Positions 4,243 through 63,206 of a stretch of 64,000 nucleotides of DNA are shown piece after piece. How positions within the stretch are numbered: the first letter of the stretch is position 1; every line of letters begins with the position of its first letter. Where the stretch lies: positions 36,399 to 100,398 of the forward strand of contig JAZQKE010000002.1 in the NCBI GenBank assembly GCA_045541995.1. Reading direction: 5' to 3'. Origin of the DNA: Candidatus Nanosyncoccus sp. GTDB lineage: Bacteria > Patescibacteriota > Saccharimonadia > Saccharimonadales > Saccharimonadaceae. A program made the translations under genes and the position numbers. Under the pieces are notes generated by a model that was not told where the DNA came from, ran no database searches, and was given only the letters and a program-made list of their open reading frames with translations.

Positions 4243-4252
4243 GAGAACACTG

Positions 4253-7199: not shown

Positions 7200-7279
7200 C
7201 TAGCATTATCTAAGTTAGGCACATAATCCACCTTCTCCTGTTGTTCTACACCCCTTATTATGGTATAATTTAATCAGTT

Positions 7280-11804: not shown

Positions 11805-11885
11805 GCTCATATTCTCTATATAAGCAATAAGATGGCTACTTCTATCTTTTTAGTTTTAGCATGACCGTGATATAATATAGATAGT

Positions 11886-14594: not shown

Positions 14595-15611
14595 CTATAT
14601 CTCCACACCCTCCACACTAGTCAGTATTACTTGGTGATTTTTAAAATTCTTCACTAGACTATTTTGTCTATCTTTATCCAATTCAGAAAAAACATCATCT
14701 AATAATACAAGCGGCTTTTTTTGCTGTGATTCTTGTATTAATTCCGCCTCAATAAATTTGAGTGCCAATATAATACTCCTCACCTCCCCACGTGAAGCGC
14801 TTCCATTAGCCTGCATACTATTAAATATAAAACTGTAATCATCTTTATGCACTCCAAAATTTGTATGTCCAGTTATTTTATCCCTATCAAAATCCATCGC
14901 GAGTAGTTTTAGATATCCACTCTCATCCACGTTGCTAGTATAACTATCAAAATTAATTTCTACAGTATCATTATTATTTGCTATAGATCTATATGTTTTT
15001 GTTAATGTTTTATTAATTTTATCTATAATATTTTTTCTTTTTTCTCTAATTTCTACTCCATATTTTGCTAATAAAACATTCCAAGAAAACAGCATCTCCT
15101 CGCTTATATATTCATTCTTTAGAGCTTCATTCCTCTGTTTTAGCGCTTTATTATAACGAAGTAGGGAATTATTATATTTATCATCTAGCTGACTAATTAG
15201 TCTATCAAAGTAATCCCTTTTCTTAGTTGGTGATGTTGCAATTAGATGTAAATCTTCCGGTAGAAAAAGAATTATCGGGTATTTTTGCGACTTAGGTAGT
15301 CTCGCTGATTTTTTCCCATGGATTAAGAAAGTTTTTTTAGAAGTATCATCACTATACGTCACTACTACCGACTCACCATTTTTGTAGTAAAGTTCCACCC
15401 TATAGAACTCTTTTTCTCGCTTTACAATCTCTCTATCTACCGCCCGAAAACTTTTCCCCTGCATCGCAATATAAATTGCCTCTAAAATTGATGTTTTACC
15501 ACAGCCATTTTCCCCCAATATAAGAGATGTTTTTTTATCACAAGTAAGTATTCGCTCCGTATGGCTACGAAAATTTATTAAGCTTACTTTCTCAATTACT
15601 ACATCTTTCAT
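14595..15611 (-). CDS. recF: DNA replication and repair protein RecF
   Basis: LINFRSH, Walker A GENGCGKTSILEAI, ASRGEVRS signature, LLDDVFSELD; downstream of dnaN. Confidence 0.92.
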   Translation of the reverse strand: MKDVVIEKVSLINFRSHTERILTCDKKTSLILGENGCGKTSILEAIYIAMQGKSFRAVDREIVKREKEFYRVELYYKNGESVVVTYSDDTSKKTFLIHGKKSARLPKSQKYPIILFLPEDLHLIATSPTKKRDYFDRLISQLDDKYNNSLLRYNKALKQRNEALKNEYISEEMLFSWNVLLAKYGVEIREKRKNIIDKINKTLTKTYRSIANNNDTVEINFDSYTSNVDESGYLKLLAMDFDRDKITGHTNFGVHKDDYSFIFNSMQANGSASRGEVRSIILALKFIEAELIQESQQKKPLVLLDDVFSELDKDRQNSLVKNFKNHQVILTSVEGVEI

Positions 15612-15616
15612 CTATA

Positions 15617-16723
15617 TTAAATATTTAGTGGCATAATAATATGTCTATATTTTTTGTCTTTTAAATTTGTTATTAACACTGGTGCTGAGCCCACCGCAAA
15701 CTCCATCTTTACATGATCCTCTTCTAGTACATTGAGTGCATCCATCAAGAAACGAGAATCTAACTTTACTTTACCACTTTTTTCTATTTTAGCTTCAATT
15801 TCTGATCTGTTTTCGCCTACTTCATTAGAGATAGATGAGACAGAAAATATCCCTTTCTTCGCGTCCGTCTCACATGTAATTGCTCTATTAGACTCTCTCG
15901 CAAAAAGTGCAGCTATTTTTACAAATCTACTTAATTCCTCTCTATCCAAATCAACTTTTATCTCATTATCTTTTGGAATCAACTGTCTATAGTCTGGAAA
16001 AGTACCGTCAATTAATTTTGATGTAATTTCCAATTCACCCACTCTGAATCTCACTTGGTTATCATCAAATAAAATTTCAATCTCATTCGCATCTTCTGGA
16101 ATAGACCTTAAAACTTCTTGTAAAGAAGCTGTTGGTACAATCGCAGCCACATCACTTTTAATCTTATCAATAAACTTCCTCTCGGCAAGCCTATATCCGT
16201 CCGTCGCCGCTACGTAAAGAGCTCCATCCGATGTATTAAAATATACACCGGTTAACGCTGGCCTAGTAGTATCTCCACTAGCTGCAATAATTACTTCAGA
16301 TAAACCTACCTTAAACTCGTCTACCCCCATTCTGTAAATTACGGCTTTGCTCTCATCAATCTCTGGTAGTTCTGGAAAATCATCTGCCGGCGTTCCATTA
16401 ATTACTGATGAGTATCTACCAGCTGAAATATTTACTCTATTTTTATCAACCTTAATTTTAACCTTTTCACCACGAGGTAAATTTTGAACAAACTCAGCAA
16501 TTAGTCGCGCAGGAACCGTAATAACCCCATCTGTAGCATTGATTACTGGTACGAAATCCACTACAGCCATATCTAAGTTTGTTGTGATTACAGATACTTT
16601 TTCTTTTTCTGCTTTAATTAAAACATTAGACAAAATTGGTAATGTAGATTTTGCACCCACAGCAACTCTACTAACTACACTTAGTGCCTTAGCAAGCTTT
16701 TCGCGTGAAACCTCAATCTCCAT
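15617..16723 (-). CDS. dnaN: DNA polymerase III beta sliding clamp
   Basis: LPILSNVLI, TNLDM, DDFPELP, ATDGYRLA, LIDGTFPDYRQLIP, IIMPL; SD AGGAGG. Confidence 0.97.
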   Translation of the reverse strand: MEIEVSREKLAKALSVVSRVAVGAKSTLPILSNVLIKAEKEKVSVITTNLDMAVVDFVPVINATDGVITVPARLIAEFVQNLPRGEKVKIKVDKNRVNISAGRYSSVINGTPADDFPELPEIDESKAVIYRMGVDEFKVGLSEVIIAASGDTTRPALTGVYFNTSDGALYVAATDGYRLAERKFIDKIKSDVAAIVPTASLQEVLRSIPEDANEIEILFDDNQVRFRVGELEITSKLIDGTFPDYRQLIPKDNEIKVDLDREELSRFVKIAALFARESNRAITCETDAKKGIFSVSSISNEVGENRSEIEAKIEKSGKVKLDSRFLMDALNVLEEDHVKMEFAVGSAPVLITNLKDKKYRHIIMPLNI

Positions 16724-16761
16724 TTTTCCTCCTAATTATAATTATTATTTCTTTATTAAAT

Positions 16762-16998
16762 TAATAGTAGTAATAGTAATAAGCTATGTGGAAATTGTGT
16801 AAAACCTCCCTACTAATAGATTATATTCGGTGCGGAAGTTTGTGTAAAACAAGTTGAAAAAACTGTGCAAATTTTTGTGGAAATTTAACCTTTTCCACCA
16901 AATATACATACTGCCAACAAATTTTTCAAACACAGTGGAAAGTTTTTCACCGCTTTCCCACATATTTTTTCGCAGATATTTTCGCATTTTTTTCCACA
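16762..16998. promoter_or_regulatory. Replication origin (oriC), dnaA-dnaN intergenic: DnaA-trios plus DnaA boxes
   Basis: Seven TA(A/G) trimers at 16762-16782, a GCTA spacer, then tandem boxes TGTGGAAAT (16787) and TGTGTAAAA (16796); further boxes at 16841, 16876 and 16990; AT-rich DUE on the left. Same layout as the Bacillus-type basal unwinding system. Confidence 0.85.
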
Positions 16999-17000
16999 AT

Positions 17001-18359
17001 CTACTCATAGATTTTCTCCCGTGTGACTGCTACCCTCTCTCGTAAAGCGAAGTCGGATTTAATATCCTCTCGAATTTTCTTAATGCCATGCATCACAGTG
17101 GTATGATCCTTAACACCTACTTCCAGAGCAATTTTAGTAGTACTCATCCCTAACTCCTCCGACAATAAATACATCGCTATTTGCCTTGCAGTTTTAATAT
17201 GGGACACCCTACTCTTTCCACACATCTCCTTGACACTTAATCCGGAAACATCAGCTACTGTATCGACAATCTTGGTAGGTGAGATGACACCATGCCTAGA
17301 TTCTATCTTTGTAGTTACGTAACCATCATTAATTACTGCCAGTGGGGAAATACCCTTAAACTCAGCGAAAGTTAGGATTTTCTTATATTCACGTTCTAGA
17401 TCACGGATGTTAGTTTTTACACTTTCAGCAATATATTCTATAGCCTCGTCTTCGATTTCCACATCATCAAACTCGGCCTTCATACGCAAAATTGCACACT
17501 TATCCTCAAATTTTGGTAATTGGATATCGTACGCCCCATCACAAGCTAAGCGGGAGGATAAACGCACATCTAGTGATTTTAATTGCTCTGGTAGGCGGTC
17601 TGAAGTAATAATAATTTGCTTACCGTGTTGATGAAGCTCATTAAATACATCAAAGAAGGCATTTTGGGTAGCTTCTTTATTAATAATCATTTGTATGTCA
17701 TCAATAATGAGAACATCAACCTTCTGGTATTTTTTAGTAAATTTATTACCTTGCTTTGAACCAAGAGCCTCAATAAACTCATTGTAGAAACTATTTGTAG
17801 GCATATATACTACTTTCAACTCAGGTCGAGTCTTCAATAATTCATTTCCAATAGCTTGAACCAGATGAGTTTTACCAAGACCAGGCCCACCATATAAATA
17901 GAATGGATTGTGTCTAGTACCAGGCTCCCTAATAATTGCCTGCGCAACTGAAGCAGCCAAATCATTATTTGACCCAACTACGAAATTATCCATAGTGTAA
18001 TTTGGATTCAAATTAGAGTTAATTTTTTTAGTAGAAGATATAGAAGCCGATTTTTTCTTTGATGCGGATCTTGTCAATTCACCAATAGAAATTTCTCTAG
18101 AGCGAGGTTTTACGCGTGTTTCCGAGGAAACAATATATTTTACATCAGTAAAATCTACCGAATTATGAGTAAGAGCATCACGAATTACACCATCATATTT
18201 TTTGCGTATTTGACCTTCCTTAAATACATTGGGGGTCTTAATAATAACAACATCACCATCGATAGAATCTAAAGAAACATCCTTAAACCAGGTGGTAAAA
18301 GCAGAGTGCGGAATAGCCTGCTCGACTTCGGCAAGAACATTTTTCCACACATCAAACAT
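17001..18359 (-). CDS. dnaA: Chromosomal replication initiator DnaA
   Basis: YTMDNFVVGSNNDLA, NPFYLYGGPGLGKTHL, LIIDDIQ, IITSDR, LSSRL, ARQIAMYL, KDHTTVMHG; SD AGGAGGT. Confidence 0.98.
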   Translation of the reverse strand: MFDVWKNVLAEVEQAIPHSAFTTWFKDVSLDSIDGDVVIIKTPNVFKEGQIRKKYDGVIRDALTHNSVDFTDVKYIVSSETRVKPRSREISIGELTRSASKKKSASISSTKKINSNLNPNYTMDNFVVGSNNDLAASVAQAIIREPGTRHNPFYLYGGPGLGKTHLVQAIGNELLKTRPELKVVYMPTNSFYNEFIEALGSKQGNKFTKKYQKVDVLIIDDIQMIINKEATQNAFFDVFNELHQHGKQIIITSDRLPEQLKSLDVRLSSRLACDGAYDIQLPKFEDKCAILRMKAEFDDVEIEDEAIEYIAESVKTNIRDLEREYKKILTFAEFKGISPLAVINDGYVTTKIESRHGVISPTKIVDTVADVSGLSVKEMCGKSRVSHIKTARQIAMYLLSEELGMSTTKIALEVGVKDHTTVMHGIKKIREDIKSDFALRERVAVTREKIYE

Positions 18360-28737: not shown

Positions 28738-29325
28738 ATGGCAGTTAAAAATCAAAAACTCAAAACCAACGCCATGCTTACCCCTGTCAGAAAACGCTCT
28801 AGAAAAGGTGTCGTTGTTGTCATTTTGATTTCTGTGCTTGTCTTAGGGGCTGCGGGGACAGTTTTAGCATTGAATATCGCCAATCAGAAATCGTCTGATC
28901 AGTCGGCAAGCGGACAGAACCAGTCTCCAGATCAGACCGATATGACTTCTGGCAAGTCAACGACCACTGCCGAGGCTCTCGGCTCAAATAACGAAGCGGA
29001 GAACAAAACGCCAGCTCAGTATGATGGCGAAAATCCCAATAATTATGATAGCCTGACCGGTATCATCACATTTAGTGGAGTAGCAGAAAACAAATTTGTT
29101 ATTAGCGCCGCGATCGATCAGTATACTACTGGTAGCTGCAAGTTCGAAGCCACAGGCCCAAATGGAGTCGTAATTTCTGCTGAAAACCCTATCATGGCCG
29201 GCCCAACATCCTCGTTTTGTTCTTACAGCGGAGATATACCATCAGTCGCAGGTAAATATAATATAGTAATCACACTGACGAGTGATAATAAAACTGGTAC
29301 TATTACCGGGGAGGTAGAGATCTAA
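28738..29325 (+). CDS. Membrane-anchored hypothetical protein
   Basis: Basic N-terminus, one TM, S/Q/T linker, small beta-rich domain with a Cys pair. Confidence 0.75.
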   Translation: MAVKNQKLKTNAMLTPVRKRSRKGVVVVILISVLVLGAAGTVLALNIANQKSSDQSASGQNQSPDQTDMTSGKSTTTAEALGSNNEAENKTPAQYDGENPNNYDSLTGIITFSGVAENKFVISAAIDQYTTGSCKFEATGPNGVVISAENPIMAGPTSSFCSYSGDIPSVAGKYNIVITLTSDNKTGTITGEVEI

Positions 29326-31934
29326 TGTCTGTAATCACCGAAATACGAGTTAACTATAAGGAAAAACTATTTCTCCTTTTTGCCTTCGTCCTTTCTGCCA
29401 CGCTTGGTTTTCTCGCTTTTAAGAATCTAGATCAAACGTCTGCTGTGCACTCTGCGTATAGTGGTTTTAACGCAGGTAATATTATTAACGATACGGTAAT
29501 GTCAGATTATAATTCCATGAGCGAGTCTGATATTCATAATTTTCTTAAATCAAAAAACCCCTGTAATGATACCAATTTATCCAAAGCAGACGGCTATTGG
29601 CATTTGAATTACCATGTAGAGAATGGGCATTTTGTCTGTATGGCAGACGAGCGGTTTAATGGGGAGTCTGCCGCACATATCATCTGGCAGGCTGCTCAGG
29701 ATTATAAAATCAACCCAAGAGTTCTAATTGTATTACTACAAAAAGAACAGGGCTTAGTCACCGACACCTGGCCAAACTTCAATCTGCAATATCGCTCCGC
29801 CACCGGCTATGGCTGCCCAGATACAGCTGCGTGTGATAGCCAATATTACGGATTCAAAAATCAAGTTAGAAACGCCGCTAGCTTTTATCGCTACATCCTT
29901 AATAATGGCTCTGCCTATTATCCAGTCGGCAACAGATCTGTAAAATATAATCCAGACGGGGGTTGTGGCAGTTCGATCGTAAATATTCAAAACCGCGCTA
30001 CGTCCGCACTCTACCAGTATACCCCATACCAGCCAAATAATGCTGTCCTAAACGCTGGCCCAGGCGTAGTAGTAAACTGTGGCGCCTATGGTAATGTTAA
30101 TTTCTACTATTACTACACTCAGTGGTTTGGCAGCACCCAAGGCAAAGAGCTGAGTGGGATTACGTTGCCGGACGGTAACATGCAGCTAAAAACCACTTCT
30201 GGTCTCGCACTATCCTTTGACGGTACTGGAAATGGCGCATCTGCTATTCTGGTCAATTCTAATACCACAGATTCACTGCAACAATTCAAGCCAATACGTG
30301 ACGGCAAATATTATCGTTTCCAAAATGTAAGAACCGGAAAATACTTGGACTTATACAATACGGAAACAAATGACGGTACGAAGGTTGAATTATGGGATGG
30401 GAATAATACCTGTGCCCAGAAATGGTTAGTCCAAAATAATGGATCTGGTTATCGCTTAATTTCTGCCTGCGCTAGTGAAGCAAACACAAAATCCCTTGAT
30501 GTTTATGGTGGCAATACAGGTAATGTAGGAAACCAAGTTAAACTATGGTCTGACAATACAAGTTCTGCTCAAAGGTGGGGAATGAATAACTTGTCCGCGT
30601 CGCCGGTTTCTGAAGGGACATATTCTCTAAAAACTACCAGCGGAAAGACATTGACTCCTACCACGGAAACACCAGGCAACGGTACTAGCGTGACTATCTG
30701 GGAGAACAACACTTCTGCCGTGAACCGTTTCAAGTTTATTCGACTAGCCGATGGTTATTATCATCTTCAGAATACTAAAACTGGACTACTCCTTGATGTC
30801 AGTGGTAACGGCACTAACGATGGTGCCAAAGTCCAGCTATGGTCAGGAAACGATAGCTGTGCTCAAAAGTGGATAATCGCAAAATCAAGTGGCAGCAACT
30901 ATACCTTAAAAAATTCATGCTCTGGTAAATCATTAGATGTCAATAATGGTGCGACCAACACGAATAACACCAAGATCCAGATTTGGTCAAATAATTCTTC
31001 TAATGCACAGAAATGGTCACTTGTCTCTCCGACCACTACCCAGCCTGTTGCCAATGGCACATATTCACTTAACTCCGCACTAGGTAATGGCCAACGTGTT
31101 GATGTCAATGGTAGCCGCGCGGCAACAAACGGAACTAATGTCCAACTTTGGAGTCGCAATGGTGGTAATAATCAAAAGTTTACATTCACGTATGATTCTA
31201 ATACAGGATATTACACCATTTACAGCCCTTCAGCTAACAGAAATCTTGATACGGCAAGTAACGGTGCAAACGGAGCGAATATACAGGTTTACAATGGCAA
31301 CAATGGCTGCTATCAACGCTGGATTGTTATCCCAGTTAACGGGCAATATTATATTGCCTCTGCCTGCTCTCGCAACGTGATAGACGCCTTTGGCGGAAAG
31401 GCGCAGGCTGGCACCAATATCGGAGTATGGACACTTAATGGTAACGCCAATCAGCGATGGAGTATTGACTCTAATACGGCAGGGCTAACGGGTCCGATAG
31501 CCAACGGCAACTATATCATTACTTCTGGTCTTAGTAATAATCTCGCTCTAGACATCTCTGGAGCAAATGCTCGGGATGGTGCCAATGTTGCCCTTTGGGG
31601 ATTGCATAAGAAAGGAAACCAACAGTTTAACCTTACCGTTGATCCAGCTACAGGGTATTACACGATATATAATGCTAGCACCAGGCGCAATCTTGATGCT
31701 ACAGGAGCAATCGCCAAAAACGGTACCAATATTGAGATATGGTCTGGGAATGCAAGCTGTGCACAGAAATGGAAAATCACCTCATCTGGCAACGATTATT
31801 ATCGAATATCATCAGTTTGTAATACGAATTTTTCACTTGATGCAAATGGAGGCGTCTCTCGTGCTGGCACCAATATCCTACTGTGGACTAACCACAACGG
31901 TAACAACCAGAAGTGGAAATTTACAAAAATCTAG
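29325..31934 (+). CDS. Secreted surface protein: putative lysozyme-like N-domain + about four ricin-B (beta-trefoil) lectin domains
   Basis: Signal/TM; SAAHIIWQAAQDYKINPRVLIVLLQKEQGL..GYGCPD; repeated LD(V/L)...G(T/A)N(V/I)QLW...(C/N)AQKW QxW units. Confidence 0.8.
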   Translation: MSVITEIRVNYKEKLFLLFAFVLSATLGFLAFKNLDQTSAVHSAYSGFNAGNIINDTVMSDYNSMSESDIHNFLKSKNPCNDTNLSKADGYWHLNYHVENGHFVCMADERFNGESAAHIIWQAAQDYKINPRVLIVLLQKEQGLVTDTWPNFNLQYRSATGYGCPDTAACDSQYYGFKNQVRNAASFYRYILNNGSAYYPVGNRSVKYNPDGGCGSSIVNIQNRATSALYQYTPYQPNNAVLNAGPGVVVNCGAYGNVNFYYYYTQWFGSTQGKELSGITLPDGNMQLKTTSGLALSFDGTGNGASAILVNSNTTDSLQQFKPIRDGKYYRFQNVRTGKYLDLYNTETNDGTKVELWDGNNTCAQKWLVQNNGSGYRLISACASEANTKSLDVYGGNTGNVGNQVKLWSDNTSSAQRWGMNNLSASPVSEGTYSLKTTSGKTLTPTTETPGNGTSVTIWENNTSAVNRFKFIRLADGYYHLQNTKTGLLLDVSGNGTNDGAKVQLWSGNDSCAQKWIIAKSSGSNYTLKNSCSGKSLDVNNGATNTNNTKIQIWSNNSSNAQKWSLVSPTTTQPVANGTYSLNSALGNGQRVDVNGSRAATNGTNVQLWSRNGGNNQKFTFTYDSNTGYYTIYSPSANRNLDTASNGANGANIQVYNGNNGCYQRWIVIPVNGQYYIASACSRNVIDAFGGKAQAGTNIGVWTLNGNANQRWSIDSNTAGLTGPIANGNYIITSGLSNNLALDISGANARDGANVALWGLHKKGNQQFNLTVDPATGYYTIYNASTRRNLDATGAIAKNGTNIEIWSGNASCAQKWKITSSGNDYYRISSVCNTNFSLDANGGVSRAGTNILLWTNHNGNNQKWKFTKI

Positions 31935-53491: not shown

Positions 53492-53524
53492 GATTTTAGT
53501 TTAGCATGGTAGGTGCCCACCGTC

Positions 53525-53545
53525 AAAAATCGGCCAAAATGCCGA
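53525..53545 (-). terminator. Copy of the tRNA-downstream terminator (putative original attB flank)
   Basis: TCGGC-ATTTTG-GCCGA-TTTTT on the - strand; near-identical copies at 57902-57923 and 58829-58850. Confidence 0.7.
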
Positions 53546-53558
53546 CTCATATAAAACC

Positions 53559-53568
53559 TGGTGGGGGC
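53559..53568 (-). repeat. tRNA 3'-end duplication GCCCCCACCA (att core R3)
   Basis: TGGTGGGGGC on +, identical to 58864-58873. Confidence 0.9.
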
Positions 53569-53594
53569 AGTTTAAGTAAGCATTAACAATCTAT

Positions 53595-53622
53595 AAAAAA
53601 GGCTACGTTTCGTAGCCTTTTT
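53595..53622. terminator. Bidirectional Rho-independent terminator
   Basis: AAAAAA-GGCTACG-TTT-CGTAGCC-TTTTT. Confidence 0.85.
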
Positions 53623-53632
53623 AGGAGGTTAG

Positions 53633-54355
53633 TCAAAGTGTTTTGCCTCTAGTATTATCCAATACCCTGAAGAGATTTTCCGACGGCATTAAGCTATAAA
53701 AGCTAAATCCTCCGCCTGGTTTTGGGAGAGGCTTAACTCCGTATTCTCCCCAAATTCGAGCTGCTTTCTCATTATTATAGCTGTTGTCCCACCATCCTGG
53801 TCTAGGAGAATCTCCGTTTGGAATAAAATATGCCTCAGTATTCTTCAGACACTTTTCTGGCTTCCATCTCCCAATGAACATAAGTTGATTACGGTATAGT
53901 AACGAATTCGCTCGCATATAATTGGTAGAGGACTGCTTTATTGCGGCTATCTTCTCATCTTTATATGGGTTTGGGTCATCGGCAAAGAAAGGGATTTTAC
54001 TATAATACCATAACCAAGATATGTATCTATGAAACACTTTTTGAGTTAGTCCCATAGCAGTACATGGTGCCCCGCCGATAAAGAATATCCTCGCGATTTG
54101 ATCTGACCGATATGCCGCCATCTCATATGCAACGGCTGCGCCAAATCCACCTTGCGCATGTATCTCAAACCTTTCATGATGTTCATTAAAAAAATTAACC
54201 ACACTTTCTCGTATGCCACGGATAATCAAGTTATCACCATTATACTGAAAAATTTGCACATGCGTGTTATAATGACGAGAAATATCGTTGGCATACCATG
54301 ATTCCGTATCTACAGAATCGCCTTCCGCTGGTATAATCAGAATACCATCTGTCAT
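53633..54355 (-). CDS. Thioesterase-like alpha/beta-hydrolase fold protein with degenerate nucleophile
   Basis: HAQGGFGAAVAYEMA resembles the GHSMGAxxAFExA nucleophile elbow but lacks Ser; ATG 54355 follows the SD-like GGGGTG. Confidence 0.5.
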   Translation of the reverse strand: MTDGILIIPAEGDSVDTESWYANDISRHYNTHVQIFQYNGDNLIIRGIRESVVNFFNEHHERFEIHAQGGFGAAVAYEMAAYRSDQIARIFFIGGAPCTAMGLTQKVFHRYISWLWYYSKIPFFADDPNPYKDEKIAAIKQSSTNYMRANSLLYRNQLMFIGRWKPEKCLKNTEAYFIPNGDSPRPGWWDNSYNNEKAARIWGEYGVKPLPKPGGGFSFYSLMPSENLFRVLDNTRGKTL

Positions 54356-54557
54356 TTTATCACCCCCTGTTAAGATACAACCTCCTTTTATATTATAACA
54401 TAATTTGTGTATTTTTGCTACATTTCGTTTCGCAATATTGACAGACATTTGCCGCTAAACAATCAATCAAACGCCTGCTCAGATAAAAACGTTAATACTA
54501 TTCGGTAAAGAGGTTCTATGCCATTTCCTATAGGAAAAAATGGTATAATAACACTAT

Positions 54558-55100
54558 ATGGAAAAATATGTAATTCTACACGGAAGTTTTGGGTCTAATA
54601 AAGGAAATTGGTTCCCATGGTTAAAGAAAGAATTGCAAAGTAAGGGCAAGCAAGTTTCTGCTCCACAAATGCCAGTTGGTGTCGGAAAACAAAATTTTGA
54701 ATCTTGGAGTAATGAGTTAGATAAACTGATAATTGATGAAAATACTATAATCATTGCCCATAGTATTGCTCCAGTCTTTGTTTGCAAATATCTAATCAAG
54801 AATGATATAAGAGTTAAAAAACTCATTTTCGTCTGCGGTTTTAATAATTATTTAGGGATTAATTCCGACTACGATGCAGTAAACGAGCCAATGTATTTTG
54901 ATAATCTTGGAGACGTGAAAAAGTATTGCGATGATATAGTTTGCTTCTATTCGGATAATGATCCATATGTAAAGTTTGATGTCGAAAAACAATTTGCCGA
55001 TACTATTACTGGCAAACAGATTGTCATAAAGGATGGTGGTCATCTTAATTCAGAAAGTGGCTTTAATAAATTCGAAGAAATATTAAGCTACATTAACTAG
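54558..55100 (+). CDS. RBBP9/YdeN family alpha/beta hydrolase
   Basis: ILHGSFG, NWFPWLKKEL, IIAHSIA, SDNDPYV, GGHLN. Confidence 0.85.
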   Translation: MEKYVILHGSFGSNKGNWFPWLKKELQSKGKQVSAPQMPVGVGKQNFESWSNELDKLIIDENTIIIAHSIAPVFVCKYLIKNDIRVKKLIFVCGFNNYLGINSDYDAVNEPMYFDNLGDVKKYCDDIVCFYSDNDPYVKFDVEKQFADTITGKQIVIKDGGHLNSESGFNKFEEILSYIN

Positions 55101-55263
55101 ACCAAATTGCTGGGGATTTAACGGACAAAATTATAGAGGTAGATTTTGGTTTTTTATGCGTTTTTGTCGCAAAAATGGCATAAAAATAGCCCTCTGTTTT
55201 CGCAAGGGATTTAACGGACATTTACAGGTTAGCGAATAGTTGAAACCTATTTCATAAACCGTT

Positions 55264-55274
55264 TGGTGGGGGCG
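55264..55274 (-). repeat. tRNA 3'-end duplication CGCCCCCACCA (att core R2)
   Basis: TGGTGGGGGCG on +. Confidence 0.9.
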
Positions 55275-55335
55275 AATTGTCCAAGCATTAACAATCTACA
55301 AGAAGATATCGGGCTAAAATTGCTAAATACGCCAT

Positions 55336-55431
55336 AAAAAAAGTTTCCGTCGGAGCAGAATGCTTCGCCCTCGTGAACATCAATAAATGAAAGCTCCGAA
55401 CCTGCGTTACAACGCTGCCCGACGAGCTTTC
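55336..55431 (-). ncRNA. Candidate small RNA
   Basis: TATAAT at 55436-55441 (-), long 5' stem-loop GAAAGCTC...GAGCTTTC with internal GCGTT/AACGC helix, imperfect 3' stem and T7 tract. Confidence 0.35.
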
Positions 55432-55634
55432 GTTAATTATATTAAACTGATATTGGACTTCATTTTTCAATTTGATGGGATGTAATTTTGATTTTCTGCT
55501 ACCAATACTATGGTCGTTGGTTTTGGGATGAAAGTATTAGTAATTATACCCGGTAAATATGCTATAATTATAGAGTAGTCTGAGGGATAAATCCTCAAGA
55601 ACATTAACTTTACACTATTTGGGAGGTGACTGTG

Positions 55635-56756
55635 ATGAAAACAGTTATGAAAATCGTACTCACCGGAGGCCCCTGCGCCGGAAAAACCACGGCGCTGAGC
55701 TGGATCTCCAATTACTTTGGCAAGATGGGCTGGCGAACTTTAATCGTCAATGAAGCGGCAACAGAACTGATTACCGCAGGGATTTTCCCCATGGACTTTG
55801 ACGATCCGCTGTTCTTCCAGAGTATTCTACTGGATACTCAAATGTTAAAAGAACGGAACTGCGTTGATGCAGCTTACGAGCTGAAAGATGCCGATAAAGT
55901 TCTAGTCGTCTGCGATCGCGGAATGCGTGATAACAAGGCTTATATGACCGACGAGCAGTTCGAGGTTTGTCTTGACCGACTCGGCGTAGCCGCACGCGAG
56001 GCTGTAAATAGCTACGATGCGGTGTTCCATCTCGTGACGGCAGCAGACGGCGCAGAGGAGTTTTATACTCTTGCGAATAATGCAGCACGGAGCGAGGACT
56101 TAAAAGAAGCTCGTGTGCTGGATCAGAAAACCCAGAACGCCTGGGTTGGGCATCCGCATCTGCGCGTCATCAAGAACGAAGGGAGCTTTGAGGACAAGCT
56201 GAAGAAACTGCTTTCGGAGATTTCTATCGTGCTCGGCGAGCCGGAGCCGTTCGAGATTGAGCGGAAGTACCTGATCGAGTACCCGGATTTGACGCTTCTT
56301 CGCGAGATGCCAAACTGTCAGGAGGTGGAGATTCTCCAGACTTATCTACGTAGCGGCAATGAGAACGACGAGGTGCGCGTGCGCCAGAGGGAAGTGGACG
56401 GAAACTATACCTTCACGAAGACAATCAAGCGCTGGACAGAGGACCCGACAAAGCGCGTGGAGATTGAAAAGCGCATCTCTAGGGATGAATACCTGAAAGC
56501 CCTAATGGACGCTTATCCCGGCCCGAACTCGATTCGCAAGACGCGGTTCTGCGTTATGCAACGCGAAACCGGCCAGTATCTCGAAATCGACATTTACCCG
56601 ACATCGGATAAATATGCGATTCTCGAAGTAGAGTTTGTCTCGACCGAAGACCAGCTCATTGCGCCGAGCTTCATCAAGGTCGTTAAGGAAGTCACCGGGG
56701 ATAAAGACTATCTTAACTTCAACATTGCTTTCAGAGGGAATCGGCTGCCTGAATAA
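55635..56756 (+). CDS. AAA_28-type P-loop NTPase fused to a CYTH (adenylate cyclase/triphosphatase-like) domain
   Basis: KIVLTGGPCAGKTT, LVVCDRG, HPHLRVI; EIERKYLI (ExExK), RVRQR, EIEKRI, RKTR, LEIDIY, ILEVE; SD GGAGG. Confidence 0.85.
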   Translation: MKTVMKIVLTGGPCAGKTTALSWISNYFGKMGWRTLIVNEAATELITAGIFPMDFDDPLFFQSILLDTQMLKERNCVDAAYELKDADKVLVVCDRGMRDNKAYMTDEQFEVCLDRLGVAAREAVNSYDAVFHLVTAADGAEEFYTLANNAARSEDLKEARVLDQKTQNAWVGHPHLRVIKNEGSFEDKLKKLLSEISIVLGEPEPFEIERKYLIEYPDLTLLREMPNCQEVEILQTYLRSGNENDEVRVRQREVDGNYTFTKTIKRWTEDPTKRVEIEKRISRDEYLKALMDAYPGPNSIRKTRFCVMQRETGQYLEIDIYPTSDKYAILEVEFVSTEDQLIAPSFIKVVKEVTGDKDYLNFNIAFRGNRLPE

Positions 56757-56768
56757 TTGTAATACATG

Positions 56769-56795
56769 AAAACCCGTTCGAGAGAGCGGGTTTTT
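56769..56795 (+). terminator. Rho-independent terminator
   Basis: AAAACCCGTTC-GAGA-GAGCGGGTTTTT. Confidence 0.8.
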
Positions 56796-56813
56796 AACTT
56801 ATATTAAATTAAT

Positions 56814-56837
56814 ATAGCCTCACTGTAGTGAGGCTAT
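56814..56837 (-). terminator. Hairpin, probable terminator of the convergent gene
   Basis: ATAGCCTCAC-TGTA-GTGAGGCTAT perfect 10-bp stem. Confidence 0.65.
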
Positions 56838-56851
56838 GTTTTTGCAGAAAT

Positions 56852-57643
56852 TTAGAGCCATCTTTCTGTCCTGAAGATTTCCCAAGGCTGTGCCTTTCCG
56901 TCTACGAAATTACCCTGTACGGCAAATCTATAAAGTTTATCTTCCAATAGCCTATGCTTTTGTCTGATAAGCTCAAATACTATATCGTTAAAGAAATTGC
57001 TGACGAGGCTATCTTTGAGCGGCTGATACCGCTTTGGGACGTTAATGTTTACTAACTCTGCATTATAATGACAGTCGCTAGTCAGAAAAGCGATTCGCTC
57101 ATCACGCTGTTTAATATATGCATCGTGAGAGACTTTGAATTTCGCGATGGCTTCATTTTTCATCAGGTCAATCCGTTTCTCAACAAATAAAAGCTCATCC
57201 CAGGGTATTATAAATCTTTCATGTATGGCTAAACCCTGAGTGAGTTCGTGCCCATCAAAAGCTTTACCAACAAACTCAACTATAAGACTGTCTTCGATGG
57301 TAAAAACTGAATTAAAACCACCGTCGTATAGGTAACGTGGGCAGCCCGGTTCTTTGGTAGATATCAATAAAAGTACACCCTCGTTGCTCTGTTTGTTAAT
57401 TTTTTCAATCAGAGCTGGTATTTCATTTGTGTATCCGTTGGCCCCAGGCACGACATTTTTCATAGATTGTCCAATAGGCATATCCATGCGACATGGGGCG
57501 AAACTCCCGTGTCTATCTTTTATAGATTCCCATTCTTTCAGATTACTGATGATATCAATATTCTTGAAAGGTGTAACCCTCGGTAAATATTTGTTAAGAA
57601 GCACGATCCCTTTTGCTTTGCCATAATTCATAGGGTTTCTCAT
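56852..57643 (-). CDS. Hypothetical protein
   Basis: 263 aa ORF with SD AGGAGGTG and TGTTATAAT upstream; no motif recognised. Confidence 0.75.
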   Translation of the reverse strand: MRNPMNYGKAKGIVLLNKYLPRVTPFKNIDIISNLKEWESIKDRHGSFAPCRMDMPIGQSMKNVVPGANGYTNEIPALIEKINKQSNEGVLLLISTKEPGCPRYLYDGGFNSVFTIEDSLIVEFVGKAFDGHELTQGLAIHERFIIPWDELLFVEKRIDLMKNEAIAKFKVSHDAYIKQRDERIAFLTSDCHYNAELVNINVPKRYQPLKDSLVSNFFNDIVFELIRQKHRLLEDKLYRFAVQGNFVDGKAQPWEIFRTERWL

Positions 57644-57936
57644 AAAACAACACCTCCTTCTATACGATTGCCCTATTTCTCTGCTGGAAATGTACAGGCT
57701 CCCACCAGACTTTTTTCATTATAACATAGTTATGGACAAAAGTAAAATAGATACGTGGGCAGGTTTTATATGGTTAGATTGTTTAGGGTATTAACAGACG
57801 ATTTATAGAGTCAAAATGCGCTTTCTGGCGCATTTTTCGTGCAAATTTTGTACAAAATAGCAACCTAGAACCTGAAAGGTACTTAACAGAAATCTACTAC
57901 TAAAAAATCGGCTAAAATGCCGACTCATATAAAATT

Positions 57937-57947
57937 TGGTGGGGGCG
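57937..57947 (-). repeat. tRNA 3'-end duplication CGCCCCCACCA (att core R1)
   Basis: TGGTGGGGGCG on +. Confidence 0.9.
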
Positions 57948-58036
57948 AATTGTTCAGGCATTAACAATCTATAAGGAAGATATCCGCGAAAAGTGGCGAC
58001 TTGCGTCTCATGATATAATAGTAGAAAGGAGAATAG

Positions 58037-58696
58037 ATGATAGATTCTAAAGCATGGAACTGGAATATGGTAAAAGGCGACCACGAAAAATATTGGCAAG
58101 AGCCAGCGACGGAATCCTATTATCTCATCAACCGATGGCTTTCCCAGAACAAAAGCGATTTCCTCGATCTCGGTTGCGGGCTAGGAAGACATACTATTCA
58201 ATTTGCCAAAGCAGGGTTTAATACTTCTGGGTTTGATTTAAGCGAAACATCGATCGAAAGAACAGAAGAGTACGCTGAGCAAGCAGGAGTAAAAGTCGAT
58301 TTACGAGTTGGCGATATGCTGAACCTGCCGTACGGTGACGATAGTTTCGATTGCATTTATTGTCGCAACGTAATATCTCATACTGATACAGCGGGAATGA
58401 GAAAAATTGTTTCTGAGCTAAAACGAGTCTTGAGAAAAGGCGGGGAGTGTTATTTGACTTTGGGTTCAAAGCAGACCTGGGGCTTTCAGCAAGATTGGCC
58501 GGTGGTGGACGAGAACACAAAAATTAGAGTTGAGGATGGACCAGAGAATGGCATACCACATTTTTATGCTGACTATGATCTAATCGTAGATTTATTCAGG
58601 GACTTTGAAATCGTGAAAGTTTTTCAAGTTGAAGAGTTTATTACGAAAGAGCGAACCACTAGCTCATATCACTATCACGTACTAATCAGAAAATAA
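58037..58696 (+). CDS. Class I SAM-dependent methyltransferase
   Basis: FLDLGCGLGRH, GFDLS, VGDMLNLPYGDDSFDCI, RVLRKGG; SD AAGGAG. Confidence 0.9.
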   Translation: MIDSKAWNWNMVKGDHEKYWQEPATESYYLINRWLSQNKSDFLDLGCGLGRHTIQFAKAGFNTSGFDLSETSIERTEEYAEQAGVKVDLRVGDMLNLPYGDDSFDCIYCRNVISHTDTAGMRKIVSELKRVLRKGGECYLTLGSKQTWGFQQDWPVVDENTKIRVEDGPENGIPHFYADYDLIVDLFRDFEIVKVFQVEEFITKERTTSSYHYHVLIRK

Positions 58697-58863
58697 TAAC
58701 CTGATTTTAGGGTATTAACAGATGAATTTATAGGGGTAAAAATGTGCTTCCAAAGCACATTTTTCGTGCTAAATCGGTGCAAAATAGCATACTAGGACTT
58801 AGATGGTACTTAACAGAAAATTACTACTAAAAAATCGGCTAAAATGCCGAGTTAGATATAATC

Positions 58864-58939
58864 TGGTGGGGGCGGCTGGGTTCGAACCAGCGACCAATCG
58901 GTTATGAGCCGACTGCTCTAACCCCTGAGCTACGCCCCC
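58864..58939 (-). tRNA. tRNA with CAU anticodon, most likely tRNA-Ile2 (lysidine-modified); elongator Met not excluded
   Basis: GGGGGCGTAGCTCAGGGGTTAGAGCAGTCGGCT-CAT-AACCGATTGGTCGCTGGTTCGAACCCAGCCGCCCCCACCA: 76 nt, full cloverleaf, encoded CCA, G1-C72 paired (not initiator), resembles ileX-type tRNAs; TGCTATAAT promoter at 58953-58961 (-). Confidence 0.93.
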
Positions 58940-58987: not shown

Positions 58988-59422
58988 ATGGAAAACATTA
59001 AAACCAAATTTCGTAGACTTGGATACCGCATCAAACGCTGGTTTAATCAGGATCGCATGGTTTTTTTGGTGGCTATCGCCATGTGTCTAATCTGGACCTG
59101 GGGTGCTATTTCTGCGATGACCAGAAACTGGGATCTAGAACAGCGTCTTACCTCTCGGCGCCAGGAGCTAGCTTTGCTACAACTAGAAATCGATTCACTA
59201 GAGCTAGAGAATCGTTATTACGCCTCGGATGAGTATCAAGAGCTAATTGCCCGCGCGAAGCAAAACAAGCTCAATGATGGCGAGACTCTAATATACCTGC
59301 CAGAAAACAGCAATTTCGCCAAAAACAAGCACGACGATACTACAGAGGAGCGTCCAATTACCGAAGAGCCGTCTAATTTCGAGCAATGGTTTACCTTTAT
59401 CTTTGGCTCACAAAAGTCTTAA
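58988..59422 (+). CDS. Septum formation initiator (FtsB/DivIC-like)
   Basis: One TM, a leucine coiled coil, then DEYQELIAR.K......GETLIYLP. Confidence 0.7.
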   Translation: MENIKTKFRRLGYRIKRWFNQDRMVFLVAIAMCLIWTWGAISAMTRNWDLEQRLTSRRQELALLQLEIDSLELENRYYASDEYQELIARAKQNKLNDGETLIYLPENSNFAKNKHDDTTEERPITEEPSNFEQWFTFIFGSQKS

Positions 59423-60197: not shown

Positions 60198-63100
60198 ATG
60201 ATACAAAATATAATCCAAAACAACAAAGTTATGATTAAGGGGATTTTAGCTTTCGCGGTAATGACAGCTGCTGGTTTTTTAGGCGTTCAGAATGTTTCAG
60301 CGCTAAGCTGTGATTCCAACGAGTCTACTTGGTGGGCCTGTAATACATGTAAGTCTGCTCACTGTGGCGCTACCTGGTTTAATAGTAGTAGCTGGGGAGA
60401 CGAGAGTAATACCCTAAATGTCAAGCCAGGCTCTATAGATGCTACTGGTTATATCCACGGCGCAGTCTATACCAGAGATAGCTCAGCAGAATATTCGCCT
60501 ACCGCCCATGATGTTTGGGTTTTAAGCTGGTTACCAGAAGGCGGCATCCCAGATGCACGTGGTGATTTTGATCCCGTACCGTATGCTGCTAGCTATATTT
60601 ACAATGGCCAAGGAAATGATCTATACCGTGGGAATGAAGGACCAAACGGTTCCTTTAGTACACATTGGGAAGGTAGCAGCATCCCGTTTGCGTTTTATGT
60701 CAAAGATTTCTTAAGAGGCGCTCAGCGTAGTGGTAATACTTTCTCGCGTACGGAACACATTTATCGTTGTTATTTTGCTGATAAAGGTTGCGATGCAACT
60801 CCAACCACTATTAACGTTGAAATCGAACAAACTATTATACCACAAGTAAAACATGATTACTATAGGGTCGCCTATCAAGGTAAGATCTCCCTCAAAAATG
60901 ACGACAACTCCCCCCTGTATGAACATGGATCCATACTTAGCTCCAATAGCTGGCCAGAATATGCTGGTTGGGGCGATGAAAATTCCTATGTGGATGTTAA
61001 TCTCTATACCCCCAAAGAATCTGGCCAAAAACTCCGCTCCATGTATGAACTTAGATGGCAGTGCAACGACTGGGATGGTGTATGCTGGTGGAAAAACCAC
61101 GAAACCTCATATTATCACGTAGACTACTGCTATTATGGACTATGTAACAACTGGTATACACAATATGCCTACCGTAGCGAAATTGCCGGTGGTGAAACTG
61201 GTAGAGGAAACTTTACTGTAGGTGGCCGTGGTGGACAAGGCCAAGTTACATCTCAAAAAACTAAGACCATTAATTCTATTCCTTATGGCACCTACCAATT
61301 CTATACAGAAAATCTCCAATACACAAGCATAGGTATGAACCATAAAGACGCAGATGAAGTCCTATATTCTTACATCGATGACGAAGGTGAAGAACATGTC
61401 GTTAATTATGCAACAATTACCAACGTAGGAGAACCGGACAACACTCTAAACGCCACCCGTAATCTTACAACCATCATTCGTAACCCATACAACTTCACCA
61501 CATCTGTCAGCTCTGCTATTAACGGTGGCAATGGTTCAACTGTCTTAGGTGGCAGTACCGCTACTCTACAGCTATCTGCCAATATCAAATCCCGTACTCA
61601 GCAGGACAGTGTTGCCAGCGCCGAAGTTGGTTTCCCATACTATACCAAGGTACCAGAAGACACCAAAGTAACTGCTGCAAAATTCATTCTCAAACAAGAT
61701 GTTGATGCCAACAGCGTCAACGATCTGCTAAAAGATAGGTTCGAGGTTAATAAATACCAGGTAGCCGATGATAATATCTGTAATTATCTTAACACTACTT
61801 TTGGTTCGAATATCGTTAAGGCGGGTGATACAGAAAGTGATAATAGCTGCCAGACGCTATTTACCGAGGATAGCAACAGTATTAACAATAACATCGGTGA
61901 GACTGGTTGGAATACCAGCGCCAATAATGCAGTAGCTAATAATGGTGTTTCCGCCATCACTGATGAGCACAAGAGCTTTTCTGTCTCTATTCCAGACATA
62001 GAGGATGGTTACAAGTACTGCACTGTTATTGGCATCAAGCACTCTAATAGTGGTGGTCGTGATGGTGGATACTTATTCCCATACTCTATCAACGACAACT
62101 GGCACCTCTCCAACATTTCCTGTCGCACCATTGCCAAGGTTCCATCTTTCCAGACTTGGGGCAATATCTACACTAGCGGCGGCATCAGTACTACTACCGT
62201 CAAAAAGATTCCAGACGCCAATATCAAGACCCCAGCCGAGTCTCAAAAGTACCTCTTTGGTTCCTGGTCCGAGACCTTCTCCCTCGCCAATAAAGACATT
62301 AAGAATTTCGGCACCGGCGCCTCCCTTGGTTATCTTAACAATAATCTCGGCGGCCTTCCGATTGCAGATTCCAATAACAAGATGAATTACTGCAATATCG
62401 TCAACATGACTATTGCCAACACTCGTTGCAATAGCGGCATCGGCGGTAATGCTGGTAATATTGTTGTCTCCAACGAGGATTTCCTTAATAAGTTTGTCGC
62501 TCACTACGCTACCACCACCACCGAGCAATTAGACCGCGTGACAGATACCGTTAGCTATTACAAGGCCAAAGGTAATGCCACCTTTAATGATACATCTGCT
62601 TTGGCAGACAATGGTTATCGTCTTGGCAATGGTGTAATTTCTCTCAATAATAACACCCTGATCTACCAGGTTGATGGTAATCTTACTATTAACCACAATG
62701 TCTGTACTGGTTACCCAACCGAAAGAGATCAATGTAATAATGGCACCAATGATCATTATATCTACAACTTCTATAATCTAGACAATGCCAATGTGCCATA
62801 CAATGCCAGCAGTGACAAAATTCCACAGATTATTATCATCGCCAGCGGCGATATCAATATTGATAAAAGCGTCACAGAAATTGATGCCTGGCTTTACTCA
62901 GGTGGTACCATCAAAACTTGTTACAACGGTAATCTAGGTGATGATTCCTGTGGCGAGCCACTCATTGTCCATGGTCCAGTCTTTGCTAAGAATCTCGAGC
63001 TTCATCGCACTTATGGCTCTGCTGATGCCAGGCGTTGGGAAGGAAACTTTGATAATGACAGTAGGTTCTTCTATTCTGGTGCCGCCACACCAGCAGAAAT

Positions 63101-63206
63101 CTTCGAGCTTCGCTCAGATGTCTATCAGTGGATTTACCAGCAAACCAGTACCGATAATAAAAACGCTAATGTCCGTTACATGCGTGAACTATCACCGCGG
63201 TATTAG
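60198..63206 (+). CDS. Large secreted Cys-rich protein, candidate type IV pilus-associated adhesin
   Basis: Signal peptide, 1002 aa with many Cys pairs, C-terminal GDINIDKSVTEIDAWLYSGGTIKTC...PAEIFELR; directly upstream of a prepilin. Confidence 0.6.
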   Translation: MIQNIIQNNKVMIKGILAFAVMTAAGFLGVQNVSALSCDSNESTWWACNTCKSAHCGATWFNSSSWGDESNTLNVKPGSIDATGYIHGAVYTRDSSAEYSPTAHDVWVLSWLPEGGIPDARGDFDPVPYAASYIYNGQGNDLYRGNEGPNGSFSTHWEGSSIPFAFYVKDFLRGAQRSGNTFSRTEHIYRCYFADKGCDATPTTINVEIEQTIIPQVKHDYYRVAYQGKISLKNDDNSPLYEHGSILSSNSWPEYAGWGDENSYVDVNLYTPKESGQKLRSMYELRWQCNDWDGVCWWKNHETSYYHVDYCYYGLCNNWYTQYAYRSEIAGGETGRGNFTVGGRGGQGQVTSQKTKTINSIPYGTYQFYTENLQYTSIGMNHKDADEVLYSYIDDEGEEHVVNYATITNVGEPDNTLNATRNLTTIIRNPYNFTTSVSSAINGGNGSTVLGGSTATLQLSANIKSRTQQDSVASAEVGFPYYTKVPEDTKVTAAKFILKQDVDANSVNDLLKDRFEVNKYQVADDNICNYLNTTFGSNIVKAGDTESDNSCQTLFTEDSNSINNNIGETGWNTSANNAVANNGVSAITDEHKSFSVSIPDIEDGYKYCTVIGIKHSNSGGRDGGYLFPYSINDNWHLSNISCRTIAKVPSFQTWGNIYTSGGISTTTVKKIPDANIKTPAESQKYLFGSWSETFSLANKDIKNFGTGASLGYLNNNLGGLPIADSNNKMNYCNIVNMTIANTRCNSGIGGNAGNIVVSNEDFLNKFVAHYATTTTEQLDRVTDTVSYYKAKGNATFNDTSALADNGYRLGNGVISLNNNTLIYQVDGNLTINHNVCTGYPTERDQCNNGTNDHYIYNFYNLDNANVPYNASSDKIPQIIIIASGDINIDKSVTEIDAWLYSGGTIKTCYNGNLGDDSCGEPLIVHGPVFAKNLELHRTYGSADARRWEGNFDNDSRFFYSGAATPAEIFELRSDVYQWIYQQTSTDNKNANVRYMRELSPRY

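Follow-up and report, generated by a model that had tools for sequence, protein, structure and literature searches.

An array of three gene-bearing units lies next to the only tRNA gene in a 64-kb stretch of Candidatus Nanosyncoccus sp. DNA (contig JAZQKE010000002.1, GCA_045541995.1), here called the window, whose positions are used throughout. These units probably belong to a mobile family of site-specific integrative gene cassettes that are non-autonomous and occur in ruminant-gut Saccharibacteria. In a comparison set of about 110 related loci from ruminant-gut Saccharibacteria (designated by L-numbers), such cassettes show the same anatomy, abut many different tRNA genes at the hexamer TGGTGG, occur at different sites, and differ by one cassette between near-identical strains, and no recombinase gene was found near them.

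Architecture of the array and its cassettes

The tRNA gene was identified by ARAGORN as tRNA-Met(cat) at 58864 to 58939 on the − strand. It has a CAU anticodon and an encoded CCA, and its 3′-terminal 11 nucleotides (CGCCCCCACCA, 58864 to 58874) are the attachment point of the array. Exact copies of this 11-mer on the − strand are found at 58864, 57937, and 55264, and a fourth copy at 53559 carries one mismatch (TGCCCCCACCA). The window holds seven matches to CGCCCCCACCA with at most one mismatch, against 0.44 expected, and none of 100 shuffles reached seven. The repeats, spaced by 927, 2673, and 1705 bp, delimit the three units that a preliminary description of this DNA had proposed. That description also assigned shared arms to the units. 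The left-arm box GCATTAACAATCTA is indeed present 10 nt past the end of each repeat (57958, 55285, and 53580), and the right arms of units 1 and 2 are homologous (58755 to 58874 versus 57828 to 57947, 83% identity over 120 nt), both containing TCGGCTAAAATGCCGA, the intrinsic terminator hairpin of the tRNA on the − strand. The right arm of unit 3, in contrast, is of a second subfamily; it has GGGATTTAACGG at both 55113 and 55206 but no tRNA-type terminator hairpin.

Unit 1 (57937 to 58863, + strand, 927 bp) comprises the core (57937 to 57947), the left-arm box GCATTAACAATCTA (57958 to 57971), an extended −10 element TGATATAAT (58011 to 58019, +), a ribosome-binding site (RBS; 58024 to 58031), a gene for a class I S-adenosylmethionine-dependent methyltransferase of 219 amino acids (58037 to 58696, +; Methyltransf_25, E value of 8e-24), and the right arm (58703 to 58863, +). 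The latter is composed of box 1 GGGTATTAACAGA (58710 to 58722), the hairpin of a predicted cargo terminator (58744 to 58758), box 2 GGTACTTAACAG (58805 to 58816), the block AATTACTACT, and the tRNA terminator hairpin (58835 to 58850), which is separated from the core by 13 nt. Unit 2 (55264 to 57936, +, 2673 bp) has its core at 55264 to 55274, its left-arm box at 55285 to 55298, and a −10 element TGCTATAAT at 55560 to 55568; its right arm (57779 to 57936, +) presents box 1 at 57786, box 2 at 57878, and the hairpin at 57908 to 57923. The two cargo genes of this unit are convergent, with a bidirectional terminator pair between them (56767 to 56837), and encode a 376-amino-acid protein with AAA_28 P-loop and CYTH domains in Pfam (55626 to 56756, +) and a 263-amino-acid protein without a Pfam match (56852 to 57643, −). 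The former gene has a GC content of 0.51 (window, 0.42), and its GC content at third codon positions is 0.62, versus about 0.3 to 0.5 in the housekeeping genes of the window; this excess points to recent acquisition from a GC-richer donor.

Unit 3 (53559 to 55263, +, 1705 bp) is the most distal and the most decayed unit. Its core (53559 to 53569) has one mismatch, the stretch between the core and the left-arm box (53580 to 53593) has diverged, and the left-arm promoter is missing. It contains two divergent cargo genes, one for a 271-amino-acid protein without a Pfam match (53633 to 54448, −), which has a different neighbor on contigs of other metagenomes, and one for a serine hydrolase of 180 amino acids (PF06821; 54558 to 55100, +; GC content of 0.33) with its own −10 element TGGTATAAT (54541 to 54549). 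The distal flank (53492 to 53558, +) shows the features that the preliminary description gave it, a terminator hairpin (TCGGCCAAAATGCCGA, 53530 to 53545) and no arm boxes, and represents either the last trace of an older right arm or the sequence originally downstream of the tRNA (attB side). Across the units, the GC content of the cargo ranges from 0.33 to 0.51 (window, 0.42), and all + strand cargo genes have their own TGnTATAAT element and RBS, as judged from sequence. Exact-protein look-ups with three window proteins returned one short contig or nothing, and P0061 was found in one fixed, uninformative context.

Across the comparison loci, the cassettes have conserved right arms of about 175 nt and left arms of about 45 nt. 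The left arm starts with GGGCGAATTGnnCAGGCATTAACAATCTA, and its consensus is TGGTGG followed by GGGCGAATTGnnCAGGCATTAACAATCTAyAarGAaGAtAT. Past this arm the sequence is cassette specific and usually presents an extended −10 element (TGnTATAAT), an RBS, and a gene, the −10 element being conserved in many relatives. Alignment of 40 right arms revealed invariant blocks with freely varying spacers, and left arms behave similarly. The right arm consists, in order, of box 1 (TTAGGGTATTAACAGAC), a hairpin of variable stem with a T run, box 2 (AAGGTACTTAACAGA), the block aATTTACyACT, and the hairpin AAAAAATCGGCnAAAATGCCGA, after which about 13 variable nucleotides lead to TGGTGG. The first hairpin would terminate the cargo gene, the hairpin AAAAAATCGGCnAAAATGCCGA is the predicted terminator for the tRNA on the opposite strand, and the cassette appears to be a self-contained expression unit with its own promoter and terminators. 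Between cassettes, blocks of about 50 nt within the arms show more than 90% conservation. Three direct TTAACA(G/A) boxes, two in the right arm and one in the left, are conserved around TGGTGG together with the TTTACyACT block. The arms are long, asymmetric, and marked by direct repeats, and the layout of boxes around a short core is suggestive of a lambda-type attP with predicted arm-type sites. Inspection by eye revealed no evident 11-6-11 dif-like palindromic site at the core or at the boxes.

A short form of the right arm, in which boxes 1 and 2 are fused and the 92 nt between them are deleted, is present in L039 (878 to 891 of the oriented locus) and in a metatranscriptome contig (run X36). 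Since this form recurs in unrelated cassettes, the boxes themselves seem to be hotspots of recombination or deletion. An RNA gene within the arms was considered and rejected, as Rfam recognizes the tRNA alone and no other RNA family in them. A gene running through the left arm, as codon-like variation (..ALTIYKEDIREKL..) might suggest, was likewise rejected; the frame has no start codon and meets a stop after about 20 codons in all 45 copies, and the "conserved residues" downstream of it are the −10 box.

The family was delimited with two pattern searches. The pattern of the core and left arm retrieved 36 loci from species-representative genomes, which belong to metagenome-assembled genomes of Candidatus Saccharibacteria or Ca. 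Nanosyncoccus, mostly from ruminant gut, apart from one chance match in Marinobacter; the right-arm pattern retrieved 54 further loci from metagenome contigs. These loci contain 77 complete units with a median length of 1006 bp. Exactly one open reading frame of at least 80 amino acids is present in 63 of the 77, and in 53 of those 63 it is oriented from the left arm to the right arm. The 85 proteins encoded as cargo form 52 clusters, in accordance with the earlier proposal of a family of minimal cassettes with conserved arms and diverse cargo. Their Pfam families are mutually unrelated and include a methyltransferase, HAD, two GNATs, NUDIX, HD, LysE, DUF218, TM2, an LRR/C1-peptidase surface protein, an Eco57I/ResIII enzyme, DUF4379, Bro-N, DHH, and MMPL. 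The most common cargo family (21 of 85 proteins) has no Pfam match and combines a conserved N-terminal membrane anchor (MEQN..KQKSGNGLKIATAIACIVA..) with a variable C-terminal part. It is a candidate variable surface protein and a plausible host-interaction factor of these epibionts. Its N terminus reads MEQN..GAP..KQKSGNGLKIATAIACIVAxCGIGFGVYGM, and its carriers include L002, L003, L006, L015, L016, L020, L055, and L060.

The uniformity of these units bears on whether they are what independent decay has left of larger islands or prophages with an integrase that formerly occupied this tRNA, that is, ordinary cis-mobilizable elements (CIMEs) or island debris. tRNA-anchored islands with partial tRNA repeats and decayed elements are common (10.1101/2020.12.28.424599; PMC5704250), and the core and left arm of unit 3 are decayed. 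However, the 77 units cluster tightly around 1 kb with the same promoter-gene-terminator layout, the 52 unrelated cargo clusters lie between the same arms without an integrase fragment in any of them, and a clean 740-bp indel separates two strains that are 99.6% identical (see the next section). Independent decay would not repeatedly yield so uniform a design, and we regard this origin as very unlikely.

Target site and movement of the cassettes

The right arm abuts a tRNA 3′ end at 51 junctions, which involve genes for tRNA-Phe-GAA, Val-CAC, Val-GAC, Ile-GAU, Ile-UAU, and Lys-CUU and several different CAU genes (seven anticodons). The sequence common to these junctions is TGGTGG (CCACCA on the tRNA strand) in 50 cases and TGGTGC in 1. 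At the tRNA-distal junctions, TGGTGG is followed by the element's own GGGCGAATTG, and the native flanks are unrelated between loci, which confines the exchange to at most 6 to 8 bp. The preliminary description had equated the att site with the 11 nt of the window tRNA. This definition is too narrow; the CCACCA end is common to many tRNAs, the 11-nt identity is peculiar to the window tRNA, and the sequence relevant for recombination appears to be TGGTGG(GG) only. Every tRNA gene read in the loci encodes the CCA, except one listed as Asn-GTT. Direct repeats of the tRNA 3′ part flank the insertions, and the tRNA is restored.

Some loci present further features at the same tRNA ends. A tRNA-Phe 3′ fragment follows the right arm in L003 (21 nt), L009, and L028 (shorter in the last two), and in L003 this fragment is followed by about 50 nt, including a second copy of the native flank, and then by the intact tRNA. 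These fragments suggest that this tRNA is also used by another recombination system, one whose identity segment is longer. L029, oriented as the window, contains tandem 82-bp repeats that are 97% identical (5222 to 5501), directly downstream of tRNA-Met; each holds the 3′ 38 nt of this tRNA, and this tRNA-end repeat is unlike the cassettes. The tRNA-Met(CAT) gene of the window adjoins an FtsB/DivIC-like gene (58988 to 59422), and L006, L011, L022, and L050 have a tRNA-Ile(TAT) gene beside the same neighbor. The tRNA-CAU of the window may therefore be a lysidine-dependent tRNA-Ile2 and not a tRNA-Met.

The position of the insertions relative to CCACCA also raises the question of whether the cassettes derive from non-autonomous HUH (IS200-IS605-like) single-strand transposons, which would insert 3′ of a CCACCA pentamer or hexamer and have subterminal hairpins. 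On the tRNA strand, insertion does occur directly 3′ of CCACCA and the element itself ends in CCACCA; one end has a hairpin of conserved sequence (TCGGCnAAAATGCCGA) at a distance of about 13 nt, and the other has a weak one at about 12 nt. The left-arm hairpin, however, is not kept in variants (GGGCAG versus GTTCAG), and of the two junctions examined, one folds no better than its shuffles and the second only marginally better. Nor was a TnpA-like gene noticed in 0.8 Mb, although no search aimed at TnpA was made, and long arms with three direct boxes suit a heterobivalent integrase better. A derivation from HUH elements is accordingly improbable. Folding of the attC kind was rejected for the junctions, which form only the small terminator hairpin (z-scores of −2.0 to +0.7), and a DDE transposon with TGGTGG as target-site duplication was rejected on the lack of terminal inverted repeats and on the target being always the same.

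Movement of individual cassettes is apparent from their distribution. The methyltransferase cassette of unit 1 recurs, with 86 to 92% nucleotide identity including the arms, at tRNA-Phe (L010), at tRNA-Lys-CUU (L073), and in the middle of arrays in L037 and L008, and a 92% identical version lies beside tRNA-Ile-GAU in L093 to L102. Arrays at tRNA-Val (L013) and tRNA-Phe (L039) share a DUF218 cassette with 97.3% identity over 1150 nt, and an HD cassette is 98.4% identical between L036 and L039. Comparison across strains, which the preliminary description had called for, revealed differences of two kinds: a single cassette at the tRNA-proximal position, or all cassettes beyond a shared flank. 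The second kind is seen in L045 versus L055 and L077, where the flank is 98 to 99% identical up to ...AAAAAA and the adjoining TGGTGGGG and the cassettes beyond are entirely different. The first kind is seen in L094 and L096 versus L095 and L097, whose flanks are 99.5 to 99.8% identical. L095 and L097 have one extra cassette of 740 bp, with a left arm, a gene for 175 amino acids, and a right arm, which sits exactly at the TGGTGGGG between the resident right arm and tRNA-Ile-GAU. In the empty allele, ..TATAAAATC is joined to TGGTGGGG and then to ATATGTGG..; in the occupied allele, ..TATAAAATC is joined to TGGTGGGG, the cassette follows from GCGAATTG to TATAAAACC, and a second TGGTGGGG leads into ATATGTGG... 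Both alleles were found in several samples. Other cargo, other tRNAs, and empty as well as occupied alleles thus occur among the relatives, in place of the same content everywhere with no other cargo between the arms.

The same comparisons bear on the history of the arrays. Direct tandem repeats beside one gene could arise if the region downstream of the tRNA were duplicated locally in tandem and the copies then diverged. The cargo within an array is nevertheless unrelated, and the arms within one array are mostly 75 to 86% identical (single pairs reach 92.5% and 92.9%), which is no closer than between genomes and indicates that arrays are not local duplications. More than 90 loci, moreover, have the same arms, at many different tRNAs; the comparative data refute duplication, which we consider scarcely credible. 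The most degenerate left arms are the most distal ones (window unit 3 and L008), and this decay, together with the tRNA-proximal position of the indel, fits growth of the array at the tRNA side. Most probably, the newest cassette is the one next to the tRNA, and the older distal ones are decaying.

These observations are consistent with the following mechanism. A circular cassette would carry a right arm-TGGTGG-left arm junction that serves as an attP of about 230 bp, and if this attP recombined with the CCACCA terminus of a tRNA gene that encodes CCA, the cassette would come to lie directly behind an intact tRNA. The target could be either an empty attB or, where an array already exists, its attR-like junction. 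The tRNA would receive a new terminator from the cassette, the cargo would be expressed from its own promoter, and repeated insertion would stack cassettes into arrays. Homologous recombination between arm blocks would add reshuffling and box-level deletions and could spread insertions between strains.

Homologous recombination might even account for the whole system. There would then be no dedicated recombinase, and the arms would be portable homology for RecA-dependent exchange after transformation, as in minimal mobile elements between conserved flanks. Saccharibacteria are naturally transformable, the arms offer blocks of about 50 nt with more than 90% conservation, some breakpoints lie inside the arm boxes (among them the RA1/RA2 fusion in L039 and in the metatranscriptome contig), and near-identical right-arm ends are present on both sides of the L094/L095 indel. 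Against this, the cassettes abut at least 10 different tRNA genes that have only TGGTGG in common, and their distal flanks are unrelated, so homology cannot place the first cassette at each site. The identity between near-identical strains stops exactly at TGGTGGGG, and direct box repeats in both arms are a hallmark of protein-binding arm sites. Exchange by homology alone is therefore unlikely, and site-specific integration is the preferred explanation.

The putative recombinase and a motif shared with Tn916

The absence of a recombinase from the array, claimed in the preliminary description along with a cargo of one or two unrelated genes per unit, was confirmed by Pfam, motif scans, and tblastn. 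Pfam searches of 49 cargo and flank proteins and of 20 further window proteins found no recombinase, and a six-frame scan for an RHRY-type signature (H-x-x-R...H...Y) gave no real match. A tblastn search with Tn916 Int and Escherichia coli XerD against 0.81 Mb (the window and the loci) returned nothing better than an E value of 0.27. The search for a recombinase with matching arms, which that description had proposed, thus found none in the cassettes, the window, about 0.8 Mb of related sequence, or phage and plasmid collections. A phage or plasmid carrying the arms was rejected after pattern scans of IMG/VR and blastn of phage and plasmid collections gave no match. The lack of a recombinase in cassettes and loci and of any arm-bearing phage, provirus, or plasmid in these collections indicates that the cassettes are non-autonomous, and the conserved, clearly selected arm blocks imply a protein that acts on them in trans. 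We infer that this protein is a heterobivalent tyrosine integrase, possibly of the Tn916/integrative and conjugative element (ICE) type.

The mention of Tn916 derives from one block of the right arm, whose consensus AATTTACTACT is the reverse complement of AGTAGTAAATT. The latter is present exactly on Tn916 (pCF10), twice at one end and once at the other, and we take it to be an arm-type site of the Tn916 integrase (DR-2, bound by the N-terminal domain of Int). Among 116 right-arm (RA2-linked) sites, AGTAGTAAATT is exact at 14 and has one mismatch at 57, and of the 15 exact copies that 0.56 Mb of sequence contains, 14 occupy this position in the arm. Tn916 and the cassettes thus share, as a single short motif, a sequence that is found at both ends of the former and in one copy per cassette of the latter, but no Tn916-like Int was found in 0.8 Mb. 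The motif is a lead to the integrase family, not a test.

Several points weigh against site-specific integration by such an enzyme. The Tn916 match is one short AT-rich motif that was noticed post hoc, and the boxes might in principle be sites for a regulator instead of a recombinase. The roughly 110 loci, IMG/VR, and the phage and plasmid collections yielded no integrase, excisionase, or autonomous arm-bearing element. The indel between strains might just as well reflect a loss, or homologous recombination after transformation might have spread it, and some breakpoints lie in arm boxes and not at the core (L039), so not all rearrangement is core specific. Neither an excised circle nor a junction of one cassette with itself was seen in the assembled contigs, in which an array junction and a circle junction are the same, and no circular or tandem-identical contig was present among the loci. 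Arm joints in Logan contigs are ambiguous, as the arms of different cassettes are alike.

Relation to known systems

The array had been likened to an integron in the preliminary description, and this comparison stands in part. As with integron cassettes, the units are small, mostly single-gene, recombinase-less, and of diverse accessory cargo, and they form ordered arrays; the integron recombinase acts in trans on its cassettes, as is proposed for the units. However, the system is not an integron, with no intI, attI, or attC and with a predicted promoter and terminators in each cassette. No intI gene is found beside the array in the window or next to any of the approximately 110 arrays. Unlike integron cassettes, those of Saccharibacteria do not depend on a Pc promoter, have long lambda-like arms, and form arrays at several tRNA genes per genome.

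Among known systems, CIME accretion and tandem tRNA islands come closest, and the mode of action is most like CIME accretion. CIMEs retain attL and attR but lack integration and transfer genes, and their mobility depends on a recombinase encoded elsewhere (PMC5704250). As in the CIMEs related to ICESt1 and ICESt3 and in the accretion of streptococcal integrative and mobilizable elements (IMEs), the cassettes keep attL and attR and lack genes for integration and transfer, and the extra cassette of L095 and L097, located between the resident right arm and tRNA-Ile, parallels CIME accretion. CIMEs, on the other hand, are decay products of particular ICEs or IMEs, few per genome and at one target gene, whereas here more than 100 uniform 1-kb cassettes carry at least 52 unrelated cargo families at many tRNAs, and no cognate ICE or IME was found. 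In the streamlined genome of Prochlorococcus, tycheposons insert at tRNA 3′ ends with partial tRNA repeats, and newer elements push older ones away (10.1101/2020.12.28.424599). Tycheposons and other tandem tRNA islands measure 10 to 20 kb, carry a gene for their own tyrosine (or serine) recombinase, often along with replication genes, and use one tRNA per integrase, whereas the cassettes are of 1 kb, have no integrase, and target a 6-nt end common to many tRNAs.

Small cargo modules that accumulate in tandem between recombination sites and are moved by an enzyme encoded elsewhere are also known from integrative mobile elements exploiting Xer (IMEX), the pdif modules of Acinetobacter, and the pseudo-staphylococcal cassette chromosome elements that lack ccr and reside at rlmH. 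Those modules use dif-like XerC/D sites or, at a single locus, sites of the Ccr serine recombinase; the cassettes differ in that their target is the CCA end of tRNAs and that no dif-like 11-6-11 site is evident by eye. A literature search on Saccharibacteria and Patescibacteria found no description of such cassettes, an absence that is no proof of novelty.

Saccharibacteria and other bacteria of the candidate phyla radiation (CPR) have tiny genomes. To our knowledge, few mobile elements have been described for CPR bacteria, and their strain-specific gene acquisition is poorly understood. Tentatively, the cassettes may constitute a dedicated, integron-like system of gene capture. A single recombinase, encoded elsewhere in the chromosome or on a Tn916/ICE-type element, would act exclusively in trans on a large pool of self-expressing single-gene cassettes and insert them at the universal CCACCA end of many tRNA genes; the several arrays of a genome would hold a large share of the accessory genes of these ultra-small epibionts, among them those for the hypervariable membrane-anchored protein family. 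If so, plug-and-play cassettes of 1 kb docked behind tRNAs would serve as a major channel for the flux of accessory genes, and the system would represent a second, independently evolved answer to the integron problem, with its own promoter and terminators, replacement of the tRNA terminator, and a 6-nt target shared by many tRNAs. It would pose the same puzzle as integrons, namely, how genes become packaged between the arms, and the arms with their recombinase could provide a tool for site-specific integration in organisms that are very difficult to manipulate.

Elsewhere in the window, a type IV secretion cluster of Firmicutes/ICE type (3514 to 14593), of a kind found on Tn916/ICE elements, encodes a PrgI-family protein, a VirB4-like ATPase with a TraG P-loop, an 887-amino-acid protein without a Pfam match, a glucosaminidase, and a hydrolase with lysozyme and CHAP domains. 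This cluster lies directly beside recF-dnaN-dnaA (14595 to 18359) and hence next to the presumed replication origin. Three very large proteins predicted to be surface exposed or secreted are encoded at 3 to 3440, 29325 to 31934, and 60198 to 63206; one has seven ricin-type lectin repeats, and the other two have no Pfam match.

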